Below are positions 4,524-61,158 of a DNA stretch of 64,000 bases, one piece after another. Below the pieces are notes generated by a model. It was not told the origin of the DNA, made no database searches, and was given only the letters and a program-made list of their open reading frames with translations. A program made the translations under genes and the position numbers. This DNA comes from Patescibacteria group bacterium (GTDB taxonomy: Bacteria > Patescibacteriota > Minisyncoccia > Minisyncoccales > Staskawiczbacteraceae): contig JBBTQL010000006.1 in the NCBI GenBank assembly GCA_038065715.1, positions 2,127-66,126 of the forward strand. The letters run 5' to 3'. The stretch's first letter is position 1. Each line of letters begins with the position of its first letter.

Positions 4524-6722
4524 ATGAAATTAAACATAAAAGAAAAAGACGAAGAAAAACCAGAGAAACCCGACAAAAGCCCTAAAGGGCATTTTGACGG
4601 GCCCGCCACAATCTCGCCGCCTGCCCGCAATGCTGACAGCATAGCTGCTGCAGGCGGGAAGGCGAGTTTGGGCGGGAAGTCTGCGTCCGTTAAAGTTGCA
4701 AAAAAGATAGAAAAAATTGGAGACAAACCCGCCTCCGCTAAAAGCTCTGGCGAGGCGAAGGAAGAACCCGACAAAAGCGTTTCGCGCATTTTGACGGGTG
4801 CGAGCAAAGCTCGCAAAGACGGCGAATATACGGCTAAAGATATTTACGTTTTAAAGGGTTTAGAGCCCGTTCGCAAAAGGCCTGGAATGTATATAGGTTC
4901 TACCAGCATAGACGGGCTTCATCATTTAATTTGGGAAGTTGTAGATAATTGCTTAGATGAAGCAATGGCAGGATACGCCAAAAATATTGAGGTTATTCTT
5001 TTGCCAAACAATAGAGTAAAAATTTCTGATGACGGAAGAGGCATTCCTGTTGAAAAACATGCGGATACAAAAAAATCGGCTTTAGAAACAGTTATGACAA
5101 CTTTGCATGCTGGAGGAAAATTTGGCGGAGACGCGTATAAGGTCTCTGGAGGCTTGCACGGGGTCGGTATCTCTGTAGTATGCGCGCTTTCAACATATAT
5201 GCTCTCTGAGGTGCATCGCGACGGCGGAGTTTATCAGCAGGAATATTTTAGGGGAGAGCCAAAAACATCAGTAAAAAAAGTCGGTGAATCAAAGAAAACA
5301 GGAACCACCCAAACTTTTGACGCAGACCCGCAAATTTTTTCTGAAATAAAATATGATTCAAAAAGAATTTTAACTCATTTACGCCAGCAGGCTTATTTAA
5401 CAAAAGGGGTAAGAATTTCTTTCTTAGACCATAGAGAAAAAGGGAAAGAAGCAAGTTATGATTTTTATTTTGACGGCGGCGTCGGTTCTTATGTCAAATA
5501 TTTAGTTTTAAGCAATACTCCGCGCCATGAAAATGTTTTTTCAACGGCTTCAGAAAAAAATGAAATTTATGTTGAAGCTGCTTTTCAATACACTCAAGAA
5601 ATGGAGTGCACTGAAGAAAGTTTTGCTAATAATATTTATACCCCAGAAGGCGGAACCCATATTTCAGGATTTCGCGCGGCTTTAACAAGATGCTTAAATG
5701 ATTATGCGAGGCGCGAAGGATTTTTAAAAGAAAAAGACGAGAACTTTACAGGAGATGATGTGAGAGAAGGTTTAACTGCAGTAATCTCTGTAAAAATAAG
5801 AACTCCGCAGTTTGAAGGCCAAACAAAAGCGAAATTAGGAAACCCTGAAGCAAAAAATGCAGTAGAAATGGCTTTGTCAGAGGGTTTGTCAGATTATTTA
5901 GAAAGATTTCCTCAAGACGCAAAAGCAATTATTGAAAATTGCCTTTTGGCGACCAAGGCAAGGCTGGCCGCTAAAGCTGCAAGGCAGACAGTTTTAAGGA
6001 AAGGAATTTTAGAGGGCTTAGCATTGCCTGGTAAATTGGCTGATTGCTTGTCAAAAAAACCCGAAGATTCTGAATTATATATAGTTGAGGGAGAGAGCGC
6101 CGGAGGAAGCGCCAAACAAGCAAGGGATAGGGGATTTCAGGCAATTTTGCCTTTGCGAGGAAAAATTTTAAATGTTGAAAGGGCAAGAGTTGATAAAATG
6201 CTGGCGTCAAAAGAAATTAAATCGTTAATTATTGCTTTAGGAACTGCTGTGGCAGAAGATTTTGATATAGAAAAATTAAGATATCACAGAATAGTTATTA
6301 TGACTGATGCTGACGTTGACGGAGCTCATATAAGAACTTTGCTTTTAACTCTTTTTTATAGATATTTTAAGTCCATAATAGAAGCAGGATATATTTATAT
6401 CGCCCAGCCGCCGCTTTATAAAATTCAGGCAGGAAAACGCATAGAATATGCTTATACAGAAGAACAAAAAGACAAAATTGTAAAAGAAATTGGAAAAGCC
6501 ACTGGCATATCCTTGCAAAGATATAAAGGTTTAGGAGAAATGAATTCTGAACAGCTTTGGGAAACAACAATGAATCCTGAAAACAGATTATTATTGCAAG
6601 TAACAATTGAAGACGGCCACGAAGCAGACAAAACTTTGGATATGTTAATGGGTGAAGAAGTCGGGCCAAGAAAAAAATTTATCCAGACGCACGCAAAAAC
6701 AGTTAAAAACTTAGACGTTTAA
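4524..6722 (+). CDS. gyrB: DNA gyrase subunit B with an N-terminal extension of about 100 codons built from GC-rich repeats
   Basis: GHKL ATPase (LEPVRKRPGMYIG, HHLIWEVVDNCLDEA, DDGRGIP). Toprim (YIVEGESAGGSAKQARDR, LPLRGKILNVE). Tail (IMTDADVDGAHIRTLLLTLF, QRYKGLGEM). The start is uncertain: ATG 4524 or in-frame TTG 4791. Confidence 0.95.
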   Translation: MKLNIKEKDEEKPEKPDKSPKGHFDGPATISPPARNADSIAAAGGKASLGGKSASVKVAKKIEKIGDKPASAKSSGEAKEEPDKSVSRILTGASKARKDGEYTAKDIYVLKGLEPVRKRPGMYIGSTSIDGLHHLIWEVVDNCLDEAMAGYAKNIEVILLPNNRVKISDDGRGIPVEKHADTKKSALETVMTTLHAGGKFGGDAYKVSGGLHGVGISVVCALSTYMLSEVHRDGGVYQQEYFRGEPKTSVKKVGESKKTGTTQTFDADPQIFSEIKYDSKRILTHLRQQAYLTKGVRISFLDHREKGKEASYDFYFDGGVGSYVKYLVLSNTPRHENVFSTASEKNEIYVEAAFQYTQEMECTEESFANNIYTPEGGTHISGFRAALTRCLNDYARREGFLKEKDENFTGDDVREGLTAVISVKIRTPQFEGQTKAKLGNPEAKNAVEMALSEGLSDYLERFPQDAKAIIENCLLATKARLAAKAARQTVLRKGILEGLALPGKLADCLSKKPEDSELYIVEGESAGGSAKQARDRGFQAILPLRGKILNVERARVDKMLASKEIKSLIIALGTAVAEDFDIEKLRYHRIVIMTDADVDGAHIRTLLLTLFYRYFKSIIEAGYIYIAQPPLYKIQAGKRIEYAYTEEQKDKIVKEIGKATGISLQRYKGLGEMNSEQLWETTMNPENRLLLQVTIEDGHEADKTLDMLMGEEVGPRKKFIQTHAKTVKNLDV
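4569..4601 (+). repeat. Palindromic element family 1 (CCCGACAAAAGC..GCATTTTGACGGG), copy 1, in frame in gyrB
   Basis: cccgacaaaagccctaaagggcattttgacggg. Same ends as 4767-4798 and the reverse complement of 41005-41036. Confidence 0.85.
4728..4760 (+). repeat. Family 2-like GC-rich element, in frame in gyrB
   Basis: cccgcctccgc...ggcgaggcgaag. Shares GCCTCCGC and GGCGAG.CGAAG with the copies in gatB, rnhB and gatC. Read in the same frame (A-S-A). Confidence 0.6.
4767..4798 (+). repeat. Palindromic element family 1, copy 2, in frame in gyrB
   Basis: cccgacaaaagcgtttcgcgcattttgacggg. Confidence 0.85.
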
Positions 6723-15050: not shown

Positions 15051-16565
15051 ATGGCATACAAACCAACAATTGGATTAGAAATACACGCAGAACTAAAAAC
15101 ACAGAGTAAAATGTTTTGCGGCTGTAAAAACGATCCAGATGAAAAACGGCCAAATTTTAATATTTGCCCGGTCTGCACAGCTCAGCCGGGATCTCTGCCT
15201 GTTGCAAACGAAGAAGCAATAAAAAAAGTTATAAAAACTGGGCTTGCTTTAAATTGCGAAATTGCAGAAAATTCAAAATTTGACAGAAAAAACTATTTTT
15301 ATCCAGATTTGCCAAAAGGTTATCAAATTTCACAATATGATCAGCCACTGTGTACTGGCGGATTTTTGGAAATAGAAGGTAATCCTTCGGCAGGCTCAGG
15401 ACGTAGAAAAATAAGAATTACAAGAATACATTTAGAAGAAGATACAGGAAGCTTGATGCATCCGGACGGCACGGATTACTCCCTGGTTAATTTAAACAGG
15501 GCAGGGGTGCCTTTAATGGAGCTGGTTACAGAGCCAGATATTATTTCAGGAAAACAGGCCAGAGAATTTGCAGAAGAACTTCAATTAATTTTAAAATATT
15601 TAGGTGTTTCCGATGCTGATATGGAAAAAGGGTTAATGAGAGTCGAGGTTAATATAAGCGTCAGTGATAATCATAAACTGGGAACTAAAGTTGAAATTAA
15701 AAACTTGAACTCATTTAAAGTTGTTGAAAAAGCCGTTGATTTTGAAATTAAAAGGCAGACAGAGTTATTAGAGGCAGGAGAAAAAATTGTGCAGGAAACA
15801 AGGGGCTGGCACGACAAAAAAGAAATTACTTTTTTACAAAGAGAAAAAGAAGAAGCGCATGATTATAGATATTTTCCTGAACCTGATTTGCCTTCACTGC
15901 ATTTTGATAAAAAATTTATTAATGGAATAAAAGCAACAATACCTGAATTGCCAGAGCAAAAAAGAGAGAGGTTTAAAAAAGAATACGGCTTAAATGAGCC
16001 TTTGATTGAAATTTTTGTTTCCAATAAAGACCTTAGCGAATATTACGAAAAAGTTGTTTCTGAATTTGAGCAGTGGCTTAAAGATGAAGCCGCCTCCGCC
16101 TTCGGTACGCCAAAGGCGACAGAAGCTACGGCGAGTCAAGGAAAAAAAATATTTAAGATGATTGCCAATTATTTAATTTCAGATGTTCAAGGTTTGCTTT
16201 TAGGAAAACAGTTTATTGAAACTGACTTCAGAATTACACCAGAAAATTTTGCAGAATTTATTAAAATGATTTATAAAAACGAAATTTCAAGCAAGGTGGC
16301 AAAAATGGTTTTAGCAGATATGTTTAATACGGGCTCTGACCCTTCAACCATTGTAGATGAAAATAATTTAAGGCAGATGTCAGACAATTCTGAACTTGAG
16401 AAAATTATAGAAGAAGTCATTTCAAAAAATTCAAAAGCTGTTGAAGATTATAAAAAAGGAAAACAAAATGCTCTGCAATTTTTAGCAGGGCATGTGATGG
16501 CTGAAACAAGAGGAACAGCAAATCCAGAAAAAGTTAGGGAACTATTGAACAAGCTACTGAATTAA
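15051..16565 (+). CDS. gatB: Asp/Glu-tRNA(Asn/Gln) amidotransferase subunit B
   Basis: PTIGLEIHAEL, CPVCTAQPGSLP, RIHLEEDTG. C-terminal YqeY-like tail. Confidence 0.95.
   Translation: MAYKPTIGLEIHAELKTQSKMFCGCKNDPDEKRPNFNICPVCTAQPGSLPVANEEAIKKVIKTGLALNCEIAENSKFDRKNYFYPDLPKGYQISQYDQPLCTGGFLEIEGNPSAGSGRRKIRITRIHLEEDTGSLMHPDGTDYSLVNLNRAGVPLMELVTEPDIISGKQAREFAEELQLILKYLGVSDADMEKGLMRVEVNISVSDNHKLGTKVEIKNLNSFKVVEKAVDFEIKRQTELLEAGEKIVQETRGWHDKKEITFLQREKEEAHDYRYFPEPDLPSLHFDKKFINGIKATIPELPEQKRERFKKEYGLNEPLIEIFVSNKDLSEYYEKVVSEFEQWLKDEAASAFGTPKATEATASQGKKIFKMIANYLISDVQGLLLGKQFIETDFRITPENFAEFIKMIYKNEISSKVAKMVLADMFNTGSDPSTIVDENNLRQMSDNSELEKIIEEVISKNSKAVEDYKKGKQNALQFLAGHVMAETRGTANPEKVRELLNKLLN
16086..16140 (+). 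repeat. GC-rich element family 2 (GAAGCCGCCTCCGCC...GGCGAG.CAAG), in frame in gatB
   Basis: gaagccgcctccgccttcgg...ggcgagtcaag, encoding EAASAFGTPKATEATASQG. Confidence 0.75.
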
Positions 16566-24616: not shown

Positions 24617-26422
24617 TCATTTTTTATTTTCTATCTCTCCTTTTACCTTATCAATAAATTTTTCCAATGGCATTTGGCCTAAGTCTCCCTCGGCCATAGC
24701 CCTTTCGGGCGCAGCCGAACGGGCGAGGCCCTCGCCGCGCTTTCTGACAGAAACCGCGTTTGCAGAAATTTCTTTGTCGCCAACAATTAAAAGATAAGGG
24801 ATTTTTTGCATTTCAGCCTCTCTTATTTTTTTGCCCAAAGTTTCGTTTTCAGATTTTAATTCAATGCGTATTTTTTTTTCTTTTAATTCTTTTTCAATTT
24901 TTTTAGCGTAATCAAAATGTTTTTCTGAAATCGGAATAACTGCAACCTGAACAGGGGACAGCCACAAAGGAAAAGCCCCTTCGTATTTTTCAATAAGAAA
25001 AGCCATTGTTCTTTCTATGGCGCCTATAGACGAGCGATGTATCACAATAGCTTCTTTATCTTTACCATCTTTATCTGTATAAACTAAACTAAATCTTTTT
25101 GGACCCACAAAATCATATTGCACGGTAAAAGCGGTTTCTTCTTTTCCGGCGAAATTTTTCATTTGGATGTCTATTTTTGGGCCATAAAAAGCAGCTTCAT
25201 TTTTTGCCTCAAAAAAAGGAGCATTTCTGTTTTTTAAAACTTTTCTTAAAATGTTTTCTGCGTAATTCCAAGCCTTGTCGTCTTTGTAATATTTTTTGCT
25301 GTCTTTACGGTCGCCTAAGGAAAGCCTGTATCTGTAATCAGTGTTTAATTCTAAATCGAAAATTTTTGCCATGTGGTCAATTAAATCTAATACATTGTTT
25401 ATTTCTTCTTCAATTTTTTCAGGCTGGCAAATTATATGAGAGTCGGCAAGGCAAAAGCTTCTTACTCTTATTAAGCCCGTTAATTCACCGGATTTTTCGT
25501 AGCGAAATTGTTTTGCCAGTTCAGCAATTTTGAAAGGCAGTTCTCTATATGAACGAGGTTTTGCCAAATAAAGTTGGTAGTGGTGGGGGCATGTCATTGG
25601 CCTTAATATAAGTTCTTCTTCGTCAACTTTCATCACGGGGTACATTGTGTCTTTGTAATATGGATAATGTCCGGATTTTTTGTATAAATCTACCTTCGCT
25701 AATTCTGGAGTATAAACATGTTTGTATCCTCTTTTTATTTCTTCATCAACCACCAATCCTTCCAATTCGCGTCTTATTGCAGAACCTTTTTCAGTAAACA
25801 ATGGCAATCCTTTTCCTACTAAATCCGAAAACACAAATAAATCCAGTTTTTTTCCTAAAACTCTGTGGTCGCGTTTTTCAGCTTCTTCCTGCATTTTTAT
25901 ATAATCTTGCAATTCTTTTTCAGTTTCAAAAGCTAAGCCGTAAATTCTTGTCAGCATTTTATTTTTTTCTGAACCCTTCCAGTAAGCCCCTGCTATTTTT
26001 GTTAATTTAAAAGCTTTTGGATTTATTTCATTCGTTGATTTTACATGCGGCCCTTTGCACAGATCCACAAATTCCCGCGAATTCCCGGTATTCGCGGGAA
26101 TGGTGTAAATTGAAACCGTTTTTCCAGGAAGTTCTTTTATTAATTCTAATTTATATGGCTGGTCTTTAAATATTTTTTTTGCTTTTATTTTTGAGATTTC
26201 TTCTTTTTTAAACTTTTGGTTTTGCAAAATCAGCTCGCGCATTTTTTCTTCAATTTTTTTTAGGTCGTCTGGCTCTAATGGTTTTGTTAATTGAAAATCA
26301 TAGTAAAATCCATTTTCAATTGCAGGTCCTATGCCTAATTTTGTTTTAGGCCAAAATTCTAAAACAGCCTCGGCCATTATATGTGATAGGGAATGACGTA
26401 TTTTTTCTATATTTTCTGACAT
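24617..26422 (-). CDS. thrS: Threonine--tRNA ligase (no N-terminal TGS domain)
   Basis: Editing-domain HSLSHIMAEA. Class II core (RPMTCPHHYQ, FRYEKSGELTGLIRVRSF). Anticodon-binding tail. Confidence 0.95.
   Translation of the reverse strand: MSENIEKIRHSLSHIMAEAVLEFWPKTKLGIGPAIENGFYYDFQLTKPLEPDDLKKIEEKMRELILQNQKFKKEEISKIKAKKIFKDQPYKLELIKELPGKTVSIYTIPANTGNSREFVDLCKGPHVKSTNEINPKAFKLTKIAGAYWKGSEKNKMLTRIYGLAFETEKELQDYIKMQEEAEKRDHRVLGKKLDLFVFSDLVGKGLPLFTEKGSAIRRELEGLVVDEEIKRGYKHVYTPELAKVDLYKKSGHYPYYKDTMYPVMKVDEEELILRPMTCPHHYQLYLAKPRSYRELPFKIAELAKQFRYEKSGELTGLIRVRSFCLADSHIICQPEKIEEEINNVLDLIDHMAKIFDLELNTDYRYRLSLGDRKDSKKYYKDDKAWNYAENILRKVLKNRNAPFFEAKNEAAFYGPKIDIQMKNFAGKEETAFTVQYDFVGPKRFSLVYTDKDGKDKEAIVIHRSSIGAIERTMAFLIEKYEGAFPLWLSPVQVAVIPISEKHFDYAKKIEKELKEKKIRIELKSENETLGKKIREAEMQKIPYLLIVGDKEISANAVSVRKRGEGLARSAAPERAMAEGDLGQMPLEKFIDKVKGEIENKK
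24685..24740. repeat. GC-rich double hairpin, in frame in thrS
   Basis: TTCGG..CCGAA and GGCGAG..CTCGCC stems, encoding GEGLARSAAPERAMAEG. Confidence 0.7.
26071..26101. repeat. GC-rich hairpin with a perfect 12-bp stem, in frame in thrS
   Basis: attcccgcgaat tcccggt attcgcgggaat, encoding IPANTGNSRE. Confidence 0.8.
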
Positions 26423-31413: not shown

Positions 31414-32142
31414 ATGAAATACCCGAATTTTAATGAAGAAAAAAAGTTATGGAAAAAAGGATATAAATATATAGCTGGTTTAGATGAAGCAGGCAGAGGG
31501 CCTTTGGCGGGGCCAGTTGTTGCTGCGGCTGTTGTTATATTAAATCCCAATGACCAAATTCCAATGACCAACAAAATTATAAATATCAAAGCTCAAAAAA
31601 ATTTTGGACATTGGACATTGGGGTTTGGGATTTCTGAAATTAAAGATTCAAAACAACTTTCATATAAAAAACGAGAGCAACTTTATGATATTATTACAAC
31701 AAATCAAAATATTAAATGGGGAGTTGGCATTGTTTCAGAAAAAGTTATTGATAAAATAAATATTCTTGAGGCAACAAAATTGGCTATGAAAAAATCGATT
31801 AAAAATTTAAATCCTGATTTTTTGTTGATAGACGGAAATTTTAAAATAAATATAGATGAAGCCGCCTCCGCCCCGCCATGGCGGCGCTTCGGCGAGCCGA
31901 AGCAAAAGTCTATCATAAAAGGAGATTCAAAAGTTTTTTCAATATCTGCCGCATCAATTATTGCCAAAGTTACAAGAGATAGAATAATGAAAAAAGAGCA
32001 TAAAAAATATCCGCAATATGGATTTGATGGGCACAAAGGATATGGCACAGCTTTTCATTTTAAAATGATTAAAAAACACGGCTCGTGCAAAATTCACAGA
32101 AAAAGTTTTTGGCCCGTCAGCAGTTACAATAATGCAAAATAA
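31414..32142 (+). CDS. rnhB: Ribonuclease HII
   Basis: [33 protein letters not shown]. Carries two apparent in-frame insertions. Confidence 0.9.
31542..31633. repeat. AT-rich composite palindrome, in frame in rnhB
   Basis: aaatcccaatgaccaaattccaatgaccaa ... ttggacattggacattggggtttgggattt, encoding about 25-30 extra residues between the AAV and DSKQLS motifs. Confidence 0.6.
31858..31902 (+). repeat. GC-rich element family 2, in frame in rnhB
   Basis: gaagccgcctccgccccgccatggcggcgcttcggcgagccgaag, encoding [15 protein letters not shown]. Confidence 0.8.
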
Positions 32143-40556: not shown

Positions 40557-41000
40557 ATGGCATCAAGACATTTATCACGTTCAATTGTAATGCAAAGTTT
40601 GTACGAATGGGATTTTTACGGTAAAAAAGATAATGCTTTGAATGGCATAGTTGAAAGAAATTTGGAAGATTTTGGACCTGGGTTGGAGGATAAAAAATTT
40701 GTTTGGGAATTAATTGCCGGAGTTGAAAAGCATTTAAAAGAAATTGATAAAATTATTGAAAAAGCGGCGCCAGAATGGCCAATTTCCCAAATACCAATTA
40801 TTGACAGAAATGTTTTAAGGATTGGGCTTTTTGAGCTTTTATATTCAAACAAAGACGAAGTTCCTCCAAAGGTTGCCATAAACGAAGCAATTGAATTGGC
40901 AAAAACCTTTTCAGGGCCGATTTCAGGAAAATTTATTAACGGAGTTTTAGGCACAGTTTATAAGCAAATATCCGACAGCAGCCCCGAAGGGGCAGCTTGA
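40557..41000 (+). CDS. nusB: Transcription antitermination factor NusB
   Basis: [14 protein letters not shown]...[14 protein letters not shown]...INEAIELAK. The C-terminal codons lie in a GCCCCGAAGGGGC hairpin. Confidence 0.9.
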
Positions 41001-41004
41001 CGGA

Positions 41005-41036
41005 CCCGTCAAAATGCGCGGAGCGCTTTTGTCGGG
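41005..41036 (-). repeat. Palindromic element family 1, copy 3, at the nusB-rnc junction
   Basis: cccgtcaaaatgcgcggagcgcttttgtcggg is the reverse complement of the gyrB copies. It contains the ATG at 41014 listed by the ORF track. Confidence 0.85.
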
Positions 41037-41761: not shown

Positions 41762-42235
41762 ATGCTTACAATTCGTTTATCAAGAAAAGGCAAAAAGAAT
41801 CAGCCATTTTTTAGGGTGGTTGTTATAGATAAAAGAAGATCGACAAAAGGAGGAAGGTCGGTTGAAGATTTGGGTTACGTTAATCCTTTAACTAAAAAAA
41901 TATCTTTAAATAAAGAAAGAATTCAGTATTGGCTAAAAACCGGCGCCCAGCCATCGGACACAATTCACAATTTGCTTGTAAAAGAAAAAGTTATAGACGC
42001 AAAAAAAATTCACGTTTCAAAATTAAGCAAAAAAAAGCAAGCAGAAATACTCGCCCGCAATAATGTAGCAGCTTTAGGCGGGGATAAAGAAAATGCAGCT
42101 AAAGTTCAGGCAGCCGCCTCGTCCGCTGACGAGGCGAGCCTCGCCCCCGAAGGGGCGGGAAGCAATCCAGAAGAAGTCGCGAAAGAAGAGTCAAAACCAA
42201 CAGAGGAAGTCGCAGGGGAAGAAGTTAAAGCATAA
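41762..42235 (+). CDS. rpsP: 30S ribosomal protein S16 with a C-terminal extension
   Basis: MLTIRLSRKGKKNQPFFRVVV. Confidence 0.9.
   Translation: MLTIRLSRKGKKNQPFFRVVVIDKRRSTKGGRSVEDLGYVNPLTKKISLNKERIQYWLKTGAQPSDTIHNLLVKEKVIDAKKIHVSKLSKKKQAEILARNNVAALGGDKENAAKVQAAASSADEASLAPEGAGSNPEEVAKEESKPTEEVAGEEVKA
42113..42160. repeat. GC-rich double hairpin in the rpsP C-terminal extension
   Basis: CCTCGTC cgct GACGAGG and CGCCCC cgaa GGGGCG, encoding AASSADEASLAPEGAG. Confidence 0.7.
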
Positions 42236-43139: not shown

Positions 43140-43167
43140 CCCGCCTTCGCATAAAGCTACGGCGGGG
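43140..43167. repeat. GC-rich hairpin in the 5' leader of the KH-domain gene
   Basis: cccgcc ttcgcataaagctac ggcgggg. Confidence 0.6.
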
Positions 43168-43174
43168 CAAAGCA

Positions 43175-43489
43175 ATGACAAAAGAAAACGACAAAGAGTT
43201 TCTTGAGTACATTGTCAAAGAGTTAGTTGATAACCCAAAAGACGTCAAAGTTGAGAGAAAAGTTGACGAAATGGGAGTTTTACTTTCTTTGAAAGTAAAT
43301 CCTGAAGATATGGGCCAAATAATCGGCCGCGAAGGATCAACTGCCAAGGCAATAAGAAATTTAGTCCGAATTGTCGGATTAAAAAATCACGCCAGAGTGA
43401 ACCTCAAAATTGAGGAACCAGAAGGCGGACGCGCTCCAAGAACTGAGAAAAAAGAACTCTCAGAAGATATAGACAATATCAGTTTGTAA
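43175..43489 (+). CDS. KH-domain RNA-binding protein (YlqC/UPF0109-like)
   Basis: GQIIGREGSTAKAIRNLV. Canonical position between rpsP and trmD. Confidence 0.8.
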   Translation: MTKENDKEFLEYIVKELVDNPKDVKVERKVDEMGVLLSLKVNPEDMGQIIGREGSTAKAIRNLVRIVGLKNHARVNLKIEEPEGGRAPRTEKKELSEDIDNISL

Positions 43490-46779: not shown

Positions 46780-47682
46780 ATGTTAGTTGGGCATAGCAAA
46801 CAATGGGAGTTTTTAAAGAAAAAGCTTGAACAAAATCAGCTTTCACATGCTTATTTGTTTTCTGGCCAAAATGGAATAGGCAAAAAAACTTTTGTAATAG
46901 AATTTGTAAAATATATAAATTGCCTTGCCTCGCAGAAGCCCCGCCTTGGCGGGGCGGAGGCGGGTCAAATAAATGCAAAAATACCTTGCCAAAAGTGCGC
47001 AAATTGCCTAATGATAGAAAAAAACAGTTTTCCGGATTTAACGGTTTTATCGCCAAATGGAAAAGATGAGAAATTCGGAGATGGAGGCGAAATAAAAATT
47101 TCCAGAATCAGGGAGGCGCAAAATTTTTTAAGCTATAAATCGTATTACGGCTCTTTTAAATCTGTTATCATTGACTGCGCAGAAAGCATGAATCAAGAGG
47201 CGCAAAGCTGTTTATTAAAAACTTTAGAAGAGCCAAAAGGGAAAACACTGATTTTTTTAATTTCTTCAAGGCCAGAAATAATTCTGCCGACAATTTTTTC
47301 AAGATGCCAGCAAATAAAGTTTTTTTGGGGCAAAAATTTGCCAGAAAATTTAGAAAAAAAAGAAATAGAGAAAGAAATTTTAAACAGCTTGATTCCTGTT
47401 TTAAATTCTAATCTTTCAGAAAAGTTTAAATTTGTAAAATCCATTGATGCAGAAAAGCAAAAAATTGAAGACATTATAAAGGTTGCGCAGAAATATTTAA
47501 GGCATTTATTGCTTGCAAAAATAGGCATAGAGAAATTTGATGTTAAAGACGGAGTTTTTGCAAAGTATTCAATTGGCGATTTAAAAAGAGTATTAAATTT
47601 GGCAGAAGCAATAAACAGAGAATTAACGTTTACCAATGCCAGCCCTAAATTGGCATTGGAAATATTATTAATGGAAACATAA
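46780..47682 (+). CDS. holB: DNA polymerase III subunit delta'
   Basis: HAYLFSGQNGIGKKT. Zinc module C..(insert)..CQKCANC. SRCQ. Confidence 0.8.
   Translation: MLVGHSKQWEFLKKKLEQNQLSHAYLFSGQNGIGKKTFVIEFVKYINCLASQKPRLGGAEAGQINAKIPCQKCANCLMIEKNSFPDLTVLSPNGKDEKFGDGGEIKISRIREAQNFLSYKSYYGSFKSVIIDCAESMNQEAQSCLLKTLEEPKGKTLIFLISSRPEIILPTIFSRCQQIKFFWGKNLPENLEKKEIEKEILNSLIPVLNSNLSEKFKFVKSIDAEKQKIEDIIKVAQKYLRHLLLAKIGIEKFDVKDGVFAKYSIGDLKRVLNLAEAINRELTFTNASPKLALEILLMET
46926..46964. repeat. GC-rich hairpin, in frame in holB
   Basis: gccccgcc ttg gcggggc plus flanks, encoding SQKPRLGGAEAGQ inside the zinc-module loop. Confidence 0.7.
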
Positions 47683-49432: not shown

Positions 49433-50704
49433 ATGTTGCAATCAAAATTGTTTTATAAAACAGATAAACCTGCCCGCAGCGGCTTCGCCGCAGGCGATGC
49501 AGGCGGGGAAAAGTCAGCAATTTCCCACGATTTGCTGGCGCGGGCTGGGTTTGTTGACCAGCTAATGGCTGGAGTTTATAGTTTTTTGCCCTTGGGGTTT
49601 TTGGTTCTGCAGAAAATTGAAAATATAATCAGAAAAAATATGTTGGAGGCCGATGGACAGGAAATTTTAATGCCGGCATTAAATCCAAAAGAAAATTGGC
49701 AAAAAACAGGCAGATGGGATAATTTAGATATACTTTTTAAATTAAAAGGCAATGGCGATAAAGATTATGCTTTGGCTCCAACGCACGAAGAAGTTGTGGT
49801 GCCTTTAGCTAAAAAAATTATTTTTTCGCATAAAGATTTGCCGTTGTCTATTTTTCAATTTCAGACCAAATTTAGAAATGAGTTAAGGGCGAAATCTGGA
49901 ATTTTAAGGACAAGAGAATTTTTAATGAAAGATTTATATTCTTTTCATTCTACGGAAAGGGACTTAGATAAGTATTACGACAAAATGATAAAGATATATA
50001 TGAATATTTTTAAAGAATGCGGCATTGGTAAAAATACTTACCAAACATTGGCCTCTGGCGGAAGTTTTTCTAAGTACTCAGACGAATTTCAAACAACAAC
50101 AGAAGCAGGAGAAGACATAATTTATATCTGCAAAAAATGTAAGTTGGCAATTAATAAAGAAATTAAGCCAGAAAATTCGGTTTGTCCAAAATGCGGCGCA
50201 GGCGAGTTTGACGAAAAAAAAGCTGTTGAAGCAGGAAATATTTTTAAGCTGGGGACAAAATATTCTTTGCCATTTGATTTAAAATTTAGGGATAAAGACG
50301 GCCATGAAAAAGATGTTATTATGGGGTGTTTTGGAATTGGGTTAGGAAGATTATTGGGGACAATTGTTGAGATAAATCATGATGACAAAGGAATTATTTG
50401 GCCAAAATCAGTTGCCCCGTTTTTAGTCCATTTAATAGAAATTAAATCTGATAAAAAAAATATAAAGGCCACAGCAAATAAAATTTATCAAGAATTGAAA
50501 AAAAATGGTATTCAGGTATTATACGATGATAGGCAAGATAAATCAGCTGGAGAAAAATTTGCAGAAGCCGATTTAATGGGTATTCCTTTTAGGGTTGTGG
50601 TTTCAGAGAAAACATTAGCGAAAAATTCTGTTGAAGTAAAAGAAAGAAATAAAAATACAGCGAGATTAATAAAAATAAAACAATTATCAAAAATTTTAAA
50701 GTAA
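49433..50704 (+). CDS. proS: Proline--tRNA ligase, short form lacking the INS editing domain (small CxxC...CxxC insert instead)
   Basis: Class II motifs (FRNELRAKSGILRTREF, GCFGIGLGRL). CKKCKLA...CPKCG. C-terminal anticodon-binding domain. Confidence 0.9.
   Translation: MLQSKLFYKTDKPARSGFAAGDAGGEKSAISHDLLARAGFVDQLMAGVYSFLPLGFLVLQKIENIIRKNMLEADGQEILMPALNPKENWQKTGRWDNLDILFKLKGNGDKDYALAPTHEEVVVPLAKKIIFSHKDLPLSIFQFQTKFRNELRAKSGILRTREFLMKDLYSFHSTERDLDKYYDKMIKIYMNIFKECGIGKNTYQTLASGGSFSKYSDEFQTTTEAGEDIIYICKKCKLAINKEIKPENSVCPKCGAGEFDEKKAVEAGNIFKLGTKYSLPFDLKFRDKDGHEKDVIMGCFGIGLGRLLGTIVEINHDDKGIIWPKSVAPFLVHLIEIKSDKKNIKATANKIYQELKKNGIQVLYDDRQDKSAGEKFAEADLMGIPFRVVVSEKTLAKNSVEVKERNKNTARLIKIKQLSKILK
49469..49508. 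repeat. GC-rich nested hairpin, in frame in proS
   Basis: cctgcccgcagcggcttcgccgcaggcgatgcaggcgggg, encoding PARSGFAAGDAGG before the conserved SH..L..AG motif. Confidence 0.7.
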
Positions 50705-51786: not shown

Positions 51787-52062
51787 ATGCTTAGCAAAGA
51801 CGAAGTAAAACGTATTGCAAAGTTGGCGCGGTTGGAATTAACTGAAAAGGAAATAGAAAAAATGCAGAAAGATATGTCTGCGATTTTGGATTATTTTGAT
51901 TTGTTAAAAAAAGCCCCGAAGGTAAAAGTTGAAGCCGCCTCCACCAAGGCTTCGGCGAGCCGAAGAGATGAGGTAGTTTCCAGCCACAATATAAGAGATG
52001 AGCTAATTACTGCAGCTCCCTGTAAAAAAGATGATTACATTAAAGTTAAAACAATATTATAA
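51787..52062 (+). CDS. gatC: Asp/Glu-tRNA amidotransferase subunit C
   Basis: [20 protein letters not shown]. Directly upstream of gatA. The ATG at 51787 is preferred over 51763. Confidence 0.85.
51931..51965 (+). repeat. GC-rich element family 2, in frame in gatC
   Basis: gaagccgcctccaccaaggcttcggcgagccgaag, encoding [12 protein letters not shown]. Confidence 0.75.
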
Positions 52063-53510
52063 TGGATTTAACAGAGTTAGCAATTAAAGAAGCGCACGAA
52101 GGATTAAAAAAGGGAGAATTTACTTCTGTTGATTTAACAAAAGCATATTTAGATAAAATTAAAAAAAATAATAAAAAAGTAAACGCTTATTTATCTGTGA
52201 CCGAAAATTTGGCGTTGGAAATGGCAGAGGAAGCGGATAGAAAAATAAAATCAGGAACTTTAGAAATGTTAACAGGAATTCCTTGTGCCATAAAAGACGC
52301 AATTTTAGTTGAGGGGGAAAAATGCACAGCTGGTTCAAAAATTTTAGAGAATTATATTGCTCCTTACGACGCAACAGTTATTAAAAAATTAAAGGAGCAG
52401 GGAGCTGTTATTTTAGGAAAAACAAATTTAGATGAGTTTGCAATGGGTTCGTCTACTGAAAATTCGGCATTCAGCGCGACAAAAAATCCGCACGATAAAA
52501 CAAGAGTTGCCGGCGGAAGTTCTGGCGGATCGGCGGCCGCGGTTGCGGCAAATATGGCGGTTTTCGCTTTGGGCTCTGACACTGGAGGTTCAATAAGACA
52601 GCCGGCATCCTTTTGCGGGGTTGTTGGATTATGCCCAACATATGGAGCAGTTTCCCGTTATGGTTTAATTGCCCATGCATCTTCTTTAGACCAAATTGGG
52701 CCTCTTGCTAAGAATGTTGAAGATTGTAAAATTGTTTTTGATGCAATTAAAGGCAAAGATCCGCTTGACGCAACAAGCGTTGAGTTGGGAATACAGAATA
52801 CAGAATTTAAAATTAAGAATTTACGCATTGGGGTTCCAAAAGAATATTTTGCGAAGGGATTGGAAAAAGAAGTAGAAGAAATAATCAGAGAAGCGATAAA
52901 AAAAGCAAAGGACGCAGGCGCTGAAATTATTGAAATAAGTTTACCGAGCTCAGAATACGCCTTGGCTTGTTATTATATAATTGGTCCGTCTGAAATATCA
53001 GCTAATTTGGCAAGATTTGATGGAATAAAATACGGGTTGTCCGAACCAGCGGAAAATCTCTTGGATGTATATTTAAAAACAAGAGGGAGGGGATTTGGAG
53101 TTGAAGTAAAAAGAAGAATTATGTTGGGAACATATAGTTTGTCTTCTGGGTATTATGACGCTTATTATCAAAAAGCCCAGGAAGTTAGAGAATTGATAAA
53201 GCAGGATTTTAAAGAGGTATTTGTCCCGCCAGGAGCGGGATCCCGCAGTGGCGGGAAAAAAGTTGATTTATTATTTTGCCCCGTTTCACCATTTCCGGCA
53301 TTTAAAATAGGCGAAAAAACAGATGATCCAATGTCTATGTATTTAGCTGATATTTATACTATTCCTTTAAAATTAGCAGGATTGCCCGGAATTTCTGTTC
53401 CTGTTGGAAAAATTAAAAGCCTGCCAGTTGGTTTGCAGATAATTGGAAATCATTTTGAAGAAGATAAAATTTTTAGTATAGCATCGCAAATAGAAAATAT
53501 GGTAAAATAA
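52062..53510 (+). CDS. gatA: Glutamyl-tRNA(Gln) amidotransferase subunit A
   Basis: Amidase signature [13 protein letters not shown]...[12 protein letters not shown]. Confidence 0.95.
53224..53256. repeat. 33-nt GC-rich nested palindrome, in frame in gatA
   Basis: tcccgcc aggagcggga tcccgcagt ggcggga, encoding [10 protein letters not shown]. Confidence 0.8.
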
Positions 53511-54591: not shown

Positions 54592-54626
54592 GCGGGATTA
54601 GTATAGTGGCAGTACATAACCTTCCC
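54592..54626 (+). pseudogene. Orphan 5' half of a tRNA-Gly(CCC)-like gene, broken in the anticodon loop
   Basis: GCGGGAT TA GTAT AGTGGCA GTAC A TAACC TTCCC gives acceptor strand, D-arm, 5' anticodon stem and loop up to CCC. No matching GGTTA, T-arm or ATCCCGC occurs downstream. Confidence 0.45.
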
Positions 54627-54675
54627 CCGCCCCGAAAGGGCGAGGCTCGCCCCGCCGCGGCGGGGCGGCAAGGCA
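54624..54675. repeat. GC-rich hairpin cluster abutting the tRNA half
   Basis: ccccgcccc gaaa gggcgagg, plus the 20-nt perfect palindrome cgccccgccgcggcggggcg (54648-54667). Confidence 0.8.
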
Positions 54676-54702
54676 AGATTTGGATTTCATTTTTTAAAAA
54701 AA

Positions 54703-54977: not shown

Positions 54978-56579
54978 TTACAGTATGCGAGTGTGGTTCA
55001 ATGGTAGAATGATTCCTTCCCAAGGAATAGACGGGGGTTCGATTCCCCTCACTCGCTCCGTAATAAAACTTTTTTCTCTTTTCCCGACGAATTCGCGGGC
55101 GGCCAAAACGGCCGCCCATTGCGTTTTGAGAGGGGAATTCGTTTCGCTCGGCGCGCTGCGGCGCGCCTCGCGGTTTTGCAAAATGAGGTTCGAGCCGAAG
55201 ATTTCTTTGGTGGCGACCTTTTTCGCAAAAAGGTCGCTGTCGTTTGCGATTTTATCTATGGATTCCGCTTCCTTTATCCAATTTCTCATCGGTTCGAGCC
55301 AGCCAATTTGCTTTTGTTCAAGATGAGATATTTTCTCCTCCAGCGACTTTTTCTCGGAAAGCAATTTTGCTTTTTCAGTTCGGTAGATTTCTCTTTCAAT
55401 ATCCTGTTCTAAATAACCGTCTAAAAGTCGCTGGAGCTTAACGGAAATTTCCACAATTCTTTTTTTGTTTTCTTGAACAAAAGCGATTAAGGATTGGGCG
55501 GTTTTGGTTTTGTCTTTTTCCAGCATTTTATTCAATTCGTCCGCCCAATCTTTTTTCAAAGAAAATTTTTGAAGCAAAAGCGAAATTTGTTTATTCAAAA
55601 CTTCTTGGCGAATGCAAGGTTCGTTGCATTTTGTAATTTTTGATTTATGAGTACAGTGGTAGTAAGTGTAGTAATGTTGGTTTCCGTTTTTTTGTTTTTT
55701 AACCTTGTATTCGCCGGTTATTGCCATTCCGCAATTTCCGCAACGAAGTAGTCCGCAAAATGCTTGCGGTTCATTCTTTTGTTTGTGGTGAGGTCTGCCT
55801 CTTTGCTTTAAAATTTCCTGAACTCTATCAAAAATTTTCTTTGAAATTATTGGCTGGTGTTTACCTTCGTGTGTTTCGCCAGCATAACGGAATAATCCGA
55901 CATAGAACGGATTGGAAAGGATAAAAGAAATTCTGTCTCGTTTTAATAGTTTTCCGCTTCTCGCGCTAATTCCTTGTTGCGCCAAAAAGTTAGAAATATC
56001 TTCAAGACGAGAATTGTTTTCGGCGTACAATTCAAACATTTTTCGGATTATTGGCGATTTCTTTTTATCTACAACTACATTTTTAATTCTCGGGTCGTTT
56101 AAATATCCTATCGGGGCAAAGCCTGGATATTCGCCTCGTTTAACTTTTTGGCGCAAACCTCGTTTTGTGTTTTCGGAAAGACTGTCAACATAGTATTTGC
56201 TTTGCCCGAAAGCAATATTTAACATAAATTTTCCCTGCGGAGTTGATTCAAACCAGAATGTTGGAAATTTCAGCATCGTTAAATGCCCGCAGTCCAAAAG
56301 ATAAATGATTTTCCCTCCGTCAACAGAATTGCGCGCCAGACGGTCGGGGTGCCACGCCAAAATTCCTTGGGCTTGGCCTTTTTCAATTCGTTTTATCATT
56401 TCGTTAAAAATCGGGCGGCCGGGAATTTTGGCTGATTGTTTTTCAATCAGCTCCTCAAGTATTTCAAGGTTTTCCTGTTTGGCAAAAGCGCGCAATTCTG
56501 CAATTTGGTCCTCAATAGAACGAACTTGTTTGTCCTCAACATCTGTGGATTTGCGGGCATACAAAAAGAATTTTTGCAT
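54978..56579 (-). CDS. Large serine recombinase
   Basis: N-terminal resolvase domain (YARKSTDVEDKQVRSIEDQ, catalytic Ser context; HPDRLARN). Recombinase domain. Zinc ribbon (CGNCG...HC). Coiled coil. The last ~70 codons are encoded by inverted repeat a and by the antisense of tRNA-Gly. Confidence 0.85.
   Translation of the reverse strand: MQKFFLYARKSTDVEDKQVRSIEDQIAELRAFAKQENLEILEELIEKQSAKIPGRPIFNEMIKRIEKGQAQGILAWHPDRLARNSVDGGKIIYLLDCGHLTMLKFPTFWFESTPQGKFMLNIAFGQSKYYVDSLSENTKRGLRQKVKRGEYPGFAPIGYLNDPRIKNVVVDKKKSPIIRKMFELYAENNSRLEDISNFLAQQGISARSGKLLKRDRISFILSNPFYVGLFRYAGETHEGKHQPIISKKIFDRVQEILKQRGRPHHKQKNEPQAFCGLLRCGNCGMAITGEYKVKKQKNGNQHYYTYYHCTHKSKITKCNEPCIRQEVLNKQISLLLQKFSLKKDWADELNKMLEKDKTKTAQSLIAFVQENKKRIVEISVKLQRLLDGYLEQDIEREIYRTEKAKLLSEKKSLEEKISHLEQKQIGWLEPMRNWIKEAESIDKIANDSDLFAKKVATKEIFGSNLILQNREARRSAPSETNSPLKTQWAAVLAAREFVGKREKSFITERVRGIEPPSIPWEGIILPLNHTRIL
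54987..55057 (+). tRNA. tRNA-Gly (anticodon CCC)
   Basis: Manual cloverleaf: GCGAGTG TG GTTC AATGGTA GAAT G ATTCC TTCCCAA GGAAT AGAC GGGGG TTCGATT CCCCT CACTCGC T. Confidence 0.9.
55056..55190 (+). repeat. Inverted repeat a (135 nt), left end of the element
   Basis: Perfect reverse complement of 56794-56928, checked base by base. Confidence 0.95.
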
Positions 56580-56600
56580 AGATTTTTAAACTAAAAGCGA

Positions 56601-56707
56601 CTGGAAGTAATGAGCTAATTGTTGAGGTTAGCCAGTTTCCAGCCGCTTTTAATATTCTATTGTTAGGAATAAAATACTCATTACTGAACTAACTAACCTC
56701 AACAATT
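56601..56707. promoter_or_regulatory. Interleaved inverted repeats upstream of the recombinase start
   Basis: X agtaatgag (56606-14) pairs with ctcattact (56677-85). Y aattgttgaggttag (56617-31) pairs with ctaacctcaacaatt (56693-707). A local hairpin ctggaa...ttccag spans 56601-56642. Confidence 0.4.
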
Positions 56708-56793
56708 TCATTATACCACGCTAAATCCAAAAGCAAAAATTCTTTTTTTCTGGCAAAGAAAAAAACGAGACAGAATTAAAATCGCAACGACGA

Positions 56794-57122
56794 AACCTCA
56801 TTTTGCAAAACCGCGAGGCGCGCCGCAGCGCGCCGAGCGAAACGAATTCCCCTCTCAAAACGCAATGGGCGGCCGTTTTGGCCGCCCGCGAATTCGTCGG
56901 GAAAAGAGAAAAAAGTTTTATTACGGAGTATATTTACAACTACGCTCGAACTTACTTTATCAAAAATTCGTGAGAAAAACAATTGCCCACCCGCCGCAAA
57001 GCGGCGGGCGGGCAGAAAACCCAAAAATCGCTCGGGCGGGGCGGGAAGAAAAAGGGGTGTGGGGAAAATGAATTCCCGCCCCGCCCTCGCTCTCGTCGCA
57101 GGCAAAATTTTTTTAGAGCAGA
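56794..57122 (-). repeat. Internal 329-nt inverted copy of the joined element ends (a' + b')
   Basis: 56794-56928 is the reverse complement of 55056-55190. 56926-57122 is the reverse complement of 60831-61027. Both matches are perfect and overlap at the GAG core. Confidence 0.95.
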
Positions 57123-57797
57123 CTAATCATTCAAAATTTCGTCCATACAAAATTTAGCAAGATCGGCCTTGCTTATTTTTTTGCAAATCGATAAATCCTT
57201 CGTGTTCCACGCTAACAATACGTAGCAATCATCCGCATGAGCTTTATAATTGGTCGACTGAATACAGACGTCTGGGTTCGGATTTGAAACATTTCTGACA
57301 AACGTTAAAAAGCATTGCGCTTTTAGCACGTCATCATATGCATTATTTTGGCAAATTGATATATTATTCAGTTTAGCGGCAAAAAAACCAAAACAATCTC
57401 CTCTTATCCAAGAATCTTTTTCTGAAATATCTAGACACTTTTTAGACGCTTCCCTCAAATCCATACCACTCAATACATAACATTGATTCCGAAAATCTAT
57501 ACCTGTCTTATCGGCAGAAGAACCTCCAATGCTTATAAAATCGCAAGCTTTTGGATTTTTATTATTTATAGCAACATCATTAAAGCAAAGCTCTGGCTTG
57601 GCACACGGGAAACTTTCTTCGCAATGATCTGTTGGTGGAGCTAAATAACACAAAATGGGCACGTTGAGTTTGGTTGCCAATGCGGTTAAATCTTGACGAT
57701 CGTAAAAAGATGCACTGATAAAATGCAAAGCAAAAAGTATAAAGGGGAGAAGGATTATTAATACTAGTATCGATATAGCAATTATTGCTTTTTTCAT
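57123..57797 (-). CDS. Secreted/membrane-anchored protein built of about 5 cysteine-pair repeats
   Basis: N-terminal signal/TM. Recurrent C-x(2)-I-S...C-(Y/F) units (ACDFIS..NQCY, KCLDIS..GDCF, ICQNN..AQCF, VCIQS..DDCY, ICKKIS..KFC). Confidence 0.6.
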   Translation of the reverse strand: MKKAIIAISILVLIILLPFILFALHFISASFYDRQDLTALATKLNVPILCYLAPPTDHCEESFPCAKPELCFNDVAINNKNPKACDFISIGGSSADKTGIDFRNQCYVLSGMDLREASKKCLDISEKDSWIRGDCFGFFAAKLNNISICQNNAYDDVLKAQCFLTFVRNVSNPNPDVCIQSTNYKAHADDCYVLLAWNTKDLSICKKISKADLAKFCMDEILND

Positions 57798-57820
57798 CTT
57801 GGAAGTGTTTTTATTTTATA

Positions 57821-57850
57821 AAATCCGCCCCATGTTTCAGGAGCGGATTT
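57821..57850 (-). terminator. Possible terminator between the two cargo genes
   Basis: AAATCCGC ... GCGGATTT stem. The T-rich tail is weak. Confidence 0.35.
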
Positions 57851-57854
57851 AGGA

Positions 57855-60488: not shown

Positions 60489-60682
60489 ATTTTTTTACCT
60501 AAATAAATTCGCAAAGTTTAGCCACTGCTGGCGAGACTACAAATTTAAAAAAGCAATTTTAAATTATTTAATTATATAACTTGCTCTAAAATTGTACAAC
60601 TTATGCACTTGCCTGTGGCGTAGAAACACAAAGCCCGCCGCTAGACCGAGACTTGCACCTCCCATACCCTTTCGGATATAGA

Positions 60683-60734
60683 CCACGAACATGGAGTCTG
60701 AACGACGGGTTCAGTATGTTCGTGGAATTTTTTT
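60683..60734. other. Long hairpin (10-bp outer and 6-bp inner stems) with a T-run on the + strand, inside the cargo-gene leader
   Basis: ccacgaacat ... ctgaac gacgg gttcag ... atgttcgtgg aattttttt. Confidence 0.5.
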
Positions 60735-60830
60735 GCCATGCTCAAAAATTTTAATTCTTGAGTTTAGGCAGTCAATATTTAATTGTTAAATTATTATACC
60801 AAAGAAAATAAGAAAGGTGAAGTGAGCAAA

Positions 60831-61027
60831 TCTGCTCTAAAAAAATTTTGCCTGCGACGAGAGCGAGGGCGGGGCGGGAATTCATTTTCCCCACACCCCT
60901 TTTTCTTCCCGCCCCGCCCGAGCGATTTTTGGGTTTTCTGCCCGCCCGCCGCTTTGCGGCGGGTGGGCAATTGTTTTTCTCACGAATTTTTGATAAAGTA
61001 AGTTCGAGCGTAGTTGTAAATATACTC
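60831..61027 (+). repeat. Inverted repeat b (197 nt), right end of the element
   Basis: Perfect reverse complement of 56926-57122, checked block by block. Contains the 13-bp stem gggcggggcggga/tcccgccccgccc and a second long GC hairpin. Confidence 0.95.
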
Positions 61028-61038
61028 ACGAATTTTTT

Positions 61039-61111
61039 GCCAGAGTAGCTCAGCTGGTAGAGCAACGGTATCGTAAACCGTAGGCCGCGAGTTCGAATCT
61101 CGCCTCTGGCT
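61039..61111 (+). tRNA. tRNA-Thr (anticodon CGT)
   Basis: Manual cloverleaf: GCCAGAG TA GCTC AGCTGGTA GAGC A ACGGT ATCGTAA ACCGT AGGCC GCGAG TTCGAAT CTCGC CTCTGGC T. Confidence 0.9.
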
Positions 61112-61158
61112 CTGTTTTTCAAGGCTTTACAAGTTCTTTGACAATGAGGGCCATAGCT

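Follow-up and report, generated by a model that had tools for sequence, protein, structure and literature searches.

A 64,000-nucleotide stretch of contig JBBTQL010000006.1 (positions 2,127–66,126; hereafter the window), from a Patescibacteria group bacterium whose nearest relatives are Candidatus Staskawiczbacteria, has a G+C content of ∼35% and contains numerous short islands of ∼70% G+C, mostly within housekeeping genes. Its GatB and RNase HII proteins are identical to those of a metagenome-assembled genome deposited at NCBI under that name, and the population derives from Hainich groundwater assemblies. One recurrent island is a hairpin-forming unit, usually 33 nt long, of which one subtype had been named Family 2 in an earlier reading of the sequence alone. 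On balance these units probably belong to a large family of non-autonomous elements of AT-rich Patescibacteria that are similar in character to the Rickettsia palindromic elements (RPEs), and the strong preference of their copies for a single reading frame probably stems from insertion with fixed polarity into A-rich tracts combined with selection.

The element is delimited by two conserved arms, [C/G]CCGCCTCC and CTTCGGCGAG[G/C]C[G/A]AAG, which enclose a short hairpin. A scan of metagenome contigs with a slightly degenerate pattern recovered at least 118 loci, with AT-rich flanks in most matches; all figures given here for metagenomic copies, whether they concern the census, the subtypes or the flanks, apply among the matches listed. 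The usual unit corresponds to 11 codons and lengths range from 31 to 44 nt. The commonest form is a 33-nt near-palindrome, CCCGCCTCCGCCGAAGGCTTCGGCGAGGCGAAG, a P-type unit with a predicted folding energy of −20 kcal/mol. Two subtypes are set by two perfectly linked bases: the P-type (C...G) is read PAS...FGEAK, and the A-type (G...C), which is Family 2 of the sequence-only reading, is read AAS...FGEPK, so that the peptide of the favoured frame takes the general form [P/A]-A-S-A-x-x-F-G-E-[A/P]-K. The inner hairpin covaries: its stem sequence changes and its pairing is kept, with 11 different stems and a mean terminal stem of 3.0 bp compared with 0.4 in shuffled sequences. A 32-nt variant reads PASAKASARR or AASAKASASQR, its 5′ frame being maintained and its 3′ arm falling in another frame, as in gatC. 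Pairing of the two subtype bases with each other was considered and set aside: manual comparison yielded no consistent helix register, and the predicted fold gives the 3′ base an invariant C as its partner instead.

The frame preference was quantified on matches in AT-rich context. The longest stop-to-stop open reading frame (ORF) across each element was taken as the host, provided that it was no shorter than 450 nt and no less than twice as long as the next-longest ORF, and hosts were collapsed at ≥40% identity, leaving 35 independent genic copies from the metagenomes and the window together. The favoured frame (sense, xCC GCC TCC) is used by 25 of them (71%; binomial p = 1e-12 against 1/6), and the other 10 comprise 1 and 3 copies in the two remaining sense frames and 2, 3 and 1 copies in the three antisense frames. 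This is the frame to which the sequence-only reading had drawn attention, and its claim survives the refuting condition that it had set, copies in all frames and strands at chance proportions. Sense copies outnumber antisense copies by 29:6 (p = 1e-4 against 1:1), a sense share of 83%, and 86% of the sense copies are in phase; diverged copies recovered only with a profile obey the same rule. The hosts are unrelated. Ten were confirmed by Pfam, namely GyrA, ATP synthase beta, SerRS, NusA, FtsZ, TrmD, DHFR, S9, UvrC and TatD, and those recognised by eye include IleRS, LeuRS, RecG, trigger factor and L1. Frame exceptions lie within UvrC, TatD, PyrF, PrmC, LeuRS and GatA, assignments made by eye and confirmed by Pfam for UvrC and TatD.

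Representative genomes of GTDB, a collection from which the source genome is absent, were scanned with a strict A-type pattern. A single real match emerged, in Nomurabacteria, the remainder being chance matches in GC-rich genomes; this copy, in a gene that is rhodanese-like by eye, reads QAASAQGFGEPKE and shares its frame with the window copies. No copy was found on viral contigs.

Stop codons are not the cause of the bias, because 20 of the 35 census copies, like the consensus, are open in all six frames. The consensus reads PASAEGFGEAK in the favoured frame, PPPPKASARR and RLRRRLRRGE in the other sense frames, and LRLAEAFGGGG, FASPKPSAEA and SPRRSLRRRR in antisense. Avoidance of internal Shine-Dalgarno motifs, since an antisense copy would place GGAGG in the mRNA, was rejected as well: on the sense strand GGAGG is commoner than CCTCC (44 vs 13), and of the 62 long ORFs of the window only 4 have a Shine-Dalgarno-like GGAG, GAGG or AGGA in the 20 nt that precede their assumed start. 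Shine-Dalgarno use seems to be rare in the window, unless start codons have been misassigned in many of these ORFs. The evidence on coupling to the replication strand is weakly against it and comes from a small sample, in which only one case fits: two favoured-frame copies sit in locally minority-strand genes, and the antisense copies L046 and L057, together with the doubtful L065 and L140, sit in majority-strand genes.

Within the window, a search with an nhmmer profile built from the metagenome copies, complemented by alignment and by comparison by eye, gives the following copies and candidates.

4728–4760, + strand: gyrB copy, P-type, 33 nt, read PASAKSSGEAK (nhmmer E = 6e-5).
16089–16115, + strand: gatB copy 1, A-type without the 6-nt loop, GCCGCCTCCGCCTTCGGTACGCCAAAG; its reading in phase 0 is A-A-S-A-F-G-T-P-K.
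16116–16142, + strand: gatB second half-copy, GCGACAGAAGCTACGGCGAGTCAAGGA, recognised by eye against the copies at L103 and L123, of lower confidence.
31861–31902, + strand: rnhB copy, an A-type unit of 42 nt whose inner hairpin, GCCCCGCC-AT-GGCGGCGC, is enlarged (nhmmer E = 1.4e-3).
42110–42143, + strand: segment of the rpsP C-terminal extension, GCAGCCGCCTCG...GAGGCGAGCC, read A-A-A-S in the same frame, possibly related.
43140–43172, + strand: diverged P-type copy, CCCGCCTTCGC...GGGGCAAAG, in a 5′ leader 2 nt before the ATG at 43175 (E = 0.22, weak).
46923–46964, − strand: holB copy, P-type, 42 nt, in reverse orientation, antisense translation CLASQKPRLGGAEAGQ (nhmmer E = 1.4e-3).
51934–51966, + strand: gatC copy, A-type 32-nt variant plus one base (nhmmer E = 1e-7).

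The four copies that the sequence-only reading had reported, in gatB, rnhB, gatC and gyrB, are at the positions it gave, in the hosts it named and on the coding strand, and in each the [G/C]CC GCC TCC block begins at codon phase 0 of the host ORF. Its list was incomplete, as the profile recovered the holB copy and that at 43140–43172 in addition. The statement that the element is always read in the same frame fits the four and fails beyond them: it is false within the window itself, where the holB copy is antisense and the leader copy is untranslated, and ∼29% of the census copies, that of holB included, use other frames. Nor does the shared frame extend over the whole element in every copy. 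In gatC it covers the 5′ half only, the 3′ stem being in a frame other than that of rnhB because the spacers differ by 10 nt. The gyrB copy, described as looser, is actually a good member of the commoner subtype, although it falls outside the GyrB domain, in an N-terminal extension of 95 residues that precedes it; it is the gatB copy that is the most degenerate of the four. This copy scores poorly with the profile, and is identical to the A-type consensus at 24 of 27 positions (score 33, compared with a shuffle maximum of 25); the 3′ block of the adjoining half-copy uses the frame of the 32-nt variant (ATASQG, cf. ASASQR, by eye). A by-eye count makes the holB copy ∼83% identical to that in rnhB. 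The rpsP segment was not picked up by the nhmmer profile and is retained as a resemblance only.

Given that only three or four copies had been seen initially, a chance or compositional artefact, with GC-rich Ala, Pro, Ser and Gly codons recurring in loops, deserved consideration. Against 100 dinucleotide shuffles, GCCGCCTCC at up to one mismatch has 18 matches in the window where 4.4 are expected, and the 3′ stem at up to three mismatches has 6 where 0.22 are expected; no shuffle reached either figure. Identical 32-mers, which use GC-ending codons, are present in unrelated genes of genomes that otherwise prefer A/T-ending codons. Together with the census (p = 1e-12), which refutes this explanation, these controls leave an artefact virtually no credit.

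The orthologues of the affected genes document both gain and decay. Compared with the Thermotoga enzyme, the RNase HII of the window has an additional loop that corresponds to the copy, and among orthologues with 60–75% identity both filled and empty sites are present: in the empty allele P0242, ...KSKIL is joined directly to QKS..., and P0246, P0250, P0243 and the window are filled. Filled orthologues carry a decaying copy (GCCGCCTTCGCCAAGGGCTATGGCGTGCCAAAG, read AAFAKGYGVPK), and in P0243 a 33-nt element is nested inside an element. Other assemblies of the Hainich groundwater population contain identical RNase HII proteins and yield no information on strain-level polymorphism. Some orthologues hold a different insert, TLRQAQGEKYIP, at the same loop, and across the set P0241–P0333 the protein measures 200–307 residues and has several hot spots of insertion. 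The gatB copy is absent from 19 GatB orthologues at ∼80% identity and is lineage-specific. GatC orthologues possess a P-type copy at the same site as the window, with arms conserved at synonymous positions; by these alignments the gatC copy is ancient and orthologous, and its site looks overwritten rather than simply expanded. Orthologous copies evolve like coding sequence. As a separate observation, the window gatC (51787–52062) is 100% identical to Hainich contig L152 from approximately column 76 to the stop codon and diverged ahead of that column, which looks like a recombination breakpoint inside the gene, with the element in the identical part.

This history bears on another mechanism, in which templated patching or gene conversion, by template switching at hairpins, would copy the sequence from masters such as tRNA-trailer modules, overwriting host DNA instead of inserting into it. 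The replacement in gatC without gain in length would be explained, as would the consensus A-type copy of the window at a site where orthologues carry a decayed P-type, which looks like re-conversion; the apparent breakpoint against L152, the existence of tandem arrays and nested copies, and the failure to find a target-site duplication are in keeping with it. RNase HII, however, cleanly gains 10–11 codons, the gatB and holB copies also add length, the homology that conversion requires is lacking among unrelated genes, and the discrete size of 33 nt suggests a defined unit. Conversion is accordingly given a low probability as a general account of the family.

The sequences that surround the copies point to the origin of the frame rule under the insertion reading. 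An RAA codon occupies position −1 in 12 of 22 favoured-frame copies, against a background of 14% (p = 9e-6), and an RAR codon position +1 in 18 of 22, against 17% (p = 5e-11). Antisense copies, too, have flanks that are rich in A when read in the orientation of the element: their AT skew is +0.32, compared with +0.12 for the coding strand, and because the latter is here read in reverse a negative value would be expected. The host codons around antisense copies are T-rich and hydrophobic, for example inside the GIY-YIG hairpin of UvrC. In the genes of the window 81% of RAARAA hexamers are on the sense strand and 44% are both on the sense strand and in phase; for GAAGAA the latter share is 82%. 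A preference of fixed polarity for A-rich tracts predicts the ratio between strands (83% sense) and a large part of the phase bias, and no codon-aware mechanism is required, since the flanks are A-rich in the orientation of the element and these hexamers lie mostly on the sense strand. Most likely, polar insertion into A-tracts and selection together give rise to the frame rule as a by-product, polar target choice being, we infer, its cause. The rule would have three parts. The unit is a multiple of three and is open in all frames; insertion or persistence with fixed polarity in RAA tracts would phase it automatically, because such tracts in purine-loaded genes are mostly in-phase Lys/Glu codons of the sense strand; and purifying selection, plausible against poly-Pro and Arg-rich inserts, would clear most copies in those frames. 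Copies would arrive in housekeeping genes that are unrelated to one another, preserve the frame and be read as an extra loop. The sequence-only reading had proposed either selection for a peptide that the host tolerates or a link between the insertion mechanism and the frame or strand; both seem to contribute, neither in the form suggested.

The flanks also discriminate against peptide selection acting unaided, in which insertion would be random in orientation and phase and only the frame giving the small, flexible and mildly acidic loop PASAEGFGEAK would be tolerated. The copies do lie in loops, linkers and terminal extensions, the alternative sense peptides PPPPKASARR and RLRRRLRRGE are plausibly harmful, and the 32-nt variant holds the 5′ frame even though its 3′ half is then read differently. 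The sense to antisense ratio of 29:6 (p = 1e-4) is where tolerance alone fails, because the antisense peptide FASPKPSAEA looks equally harmless; this frame is nevertheless read through unchanged only in L147, and L046 and L089 start in it. The Arg-rich frames are tolerated in PyrF, PrmC, LeuRS and TatD, favoured-frame copies sit between RAA codons far beyond the Lys/Glu background, and antisense copies amid T-rich hydrophobic codons fit a rule at the DNA level better than one at the protein level. As a sufficient cause, peptide selection is unlikely.

Several points weigh against polar insertion followed by selection. If RAARAA targeting were the sole factor, 54% of the sense copies should be in phase, whereas 86% are (p = 5e-4), and an additional filter is therefore required. 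The test on antisense flanks comprises six copies, two of them doubtful, and the A-rich flank may partly be carried with the element rather than mark the target, as the 5′ Glu codon in RNase HII is found only in filled alleles. Nor does this reading account for the perfect linkage of the two subtype-defining bases. None of the usual terminal inverted repeats, target-site duplication or transposase was found, and the gatC element brings no net length gain relative to element-free GatC, which is not the result of a simple insertion. Mobility is suggested by the distribution of copies, and the translation of the insert as a peptide is presumed. Comparison of the flanks by eye led a target-site duplication to be discarded, as the codon at −1 does not match the RAA with which the element's 3′ part is furnished.

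Long variants of 35–41 nt with a bigger inner hairpin occur directly 3′ of tRNA genes for Ser, Glu, Trp and Asp, antisense to the tRNA (metagenome loci L036, L042, L049, L083, L089, L092, L095, L110 and L129), as part of a conserved trailer of ∼90 nt that ends in ...GGCTACGGCGTGAC..AGTCCGCC. Their position, as if they were processing or terminator hairpins, lends some appeal to the notion of a functional module, either a peptide acting as a short linear motif or an mRNA hairpin involved in pausing, processing or stability, whose usefulness would constrain orientation and frame. The pairing kept through sequence change would agree with such a role, as would the arms in gatC, whose synonymous sites are conserved among orthologues that are otherwise divergent. 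Orthologous copies nonetheless decay as proteins (AAFAKGYGVPK, SASIKGSSLRK) and are lost in many lineages, the hosts have no common function, and no Rfam family matches the element or the tRNA-trailer module. An RNA hairpin would moreover not fix the strand, because the near-palindrome folds equally well either way round. A shared function is accordingly an improbable source of the frame rule. As to the insertion reading, it can tentatively be extended to a fuller scenario, itself rather doubtful, in which the 33-nt elements, possibly derived from the ∼90-nt trailer module, would spread via a hairpin intermediate of single-stranded DNA or RNA, phase themselves by polar insertion into A-rich Lys/Glu tracts and act as a general source of new surface loops in essential proteins of these ultra-small bacteria. 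Head-to-tail arrays of three to five 36-nt units also exist inside ORFs and would encode a PASALKGFGEAK repeat (metagenome loci L040, 3419–3597; L064, 532–710; L067, 754–860).

Among known systems the closest parallel is that of the RPEs, reportedly described by Ogata et al. in 2000. As summarised in a later account, RPEs are palindromes of 105–146 bp, restricted to Rickettsia, a reduced AT-rich genome, where they occur between genes, next to or inside RNA genes, and in frame inside many unrelated conserved genes, being translated as extra peptide segments, with an unknown transposase (PMC2229807). The Patescibacteria element behaves alike: it shares in-frame insertion into many unrelated protein-coding genes and lies beside RNA genes as well. 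It is set apart from RPEs by its size (31–44 nt, usually 33) and its host; homology to RPE-1 to RPE-8 is unlikely because the host is a member of the Patescibacteria. The single-frame rule and the link to A-rich tracts are here quantified for the Patescibacteria element.

Repetitive extragenic palindromic sequences (REPs) and the bacterial interspersed mosaic elements (BIMEs) are high-copy imperfect palindromes of 20–40 nt, with a hairpin that is probably recognised and some copies at gene 3′ ends; REPs are extragenic, bear a GTAG or CGTC tag at one end and are associated with the REP-associated tyrosine transposases (RAYTs) (PMC3733652). The present element is likewise an imperfect palindrome of 20–40 nt, but no GTAG or CGTC tag is found in ∼80 unique copies among the matches listed, and its short forms are predominantly intragenic. 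No RAYT (Y1 HUH) gene was detected among 20 ORFs scanned, all from the window. Mitochondrial GC clusters and byp elements are GC-rich hairpins of 27–55 nt in protein-coding genes of a very AT-rich genome, and the byp elements of Magnusiomyces reportedly disrupt the reading frame, the ribosome passing over them (Lang et al., PNAS 2014). The likeness consists of short GC-rich hairpins scattered in the coding genes of an AT-rich genome; the difference is that ORFs are continuous through the Patescibacteria element, with lengths of 27, 33 or 42 nt that are multiples of three. Bacterial MITEs (miniature inverted-repeat transposable elements) such as Correia/NEMIS, ERIC and YPAL are small non-autonomous repeats of ∼100–200 bp, in some cases joined to genes in frame; they have terminal inverted repeats and target duplications, of TA or other sequences (PMC2229807). 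The Patescibacteria unit, on the other hand, is a single quasi-palindrome as a whole, with no MITE-type terminal inverted repeats and duplication. Palindromic amphipathic repeat coding elements (PARCELs) are reportedly intragenic tandem repeats of coding sequence, palindromic at the DNA level, that have spread among unrelated microbes (PMC2996958). The present element consists mostly of single 11-codon inserts in housekeeping enzymes, with 36-nt tandem arrays as well (L040). Genic copies differ also from intrinsic terminators, as they are followed by RAA codons and not by a U-run. The element is apparently a new and very short variety of ‘protein-coding palindrome’: a search of the openly available full-text literature found no description of it in Patescibacteria.

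Odd insertions and extensions, of largely unexplained source, are a known trait of the proteins of Patescibacteria. If the proposed reading is true, the hairpin element would be a concrete source of 11-residue loops in essential enzymes of these bacteria, the affected proteins here including gyrase, FtsZ, aminoacyl-tRNA synthetases, RNase HII and GatCAB. It would also add a second clear example of selfish DNA within coding sequence to that of Rickettsia. Should polar A-tract targeting be true, a mobile sequence would be in frame by default without sensing codons. On a practical level, the 33-mers can mislead marker-gene alignments and phylogenies, and may fragment assemblies or mislead recombination analyses.

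The genome carries several other families of GC-rich hairpin islands, distinct from Family 2. In the window these lie at 4594–4679, 15381–15407, 24683–24751, 40972–41011, 42144–42171, 49465–49515, 53221–53258 and 54617–54684, in frame in genes or at gene 3′ ends except for the last, which is intergenic. Their hosts are gyrB, gatB, thrS, ORF 40557–41000, rpsP, proS and gatA. The island of gatB is read NPSAGSGRR and is common to two orthologues, and the stop codon of the unidentified ORF 40557–41000 falls within its island.

A further region of the window, 54978–61122, has the appearance of an integrated element or of a segment, perhaps two, capable of inversion. Perfect inverted repeats of 135 nt (55056–55190/56794–56928) and 197 nt (56926–57122/60831–61027) bracket a large serine recombinase (54978–56579, − strand) together with a surface-type protein of 877 residues, in which Kre9/KNH Ig-like repeats are accompanied by a peptidoglycan-binding domain, and tRNA-Gly and tRNA-Thr are found at its borders. 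Just inside the right-hand inverted-repeat region, at 60648–60770 on the − strand, lies a match to the LOOT RNA of Rfam (73.6 bits, above the gathering score).

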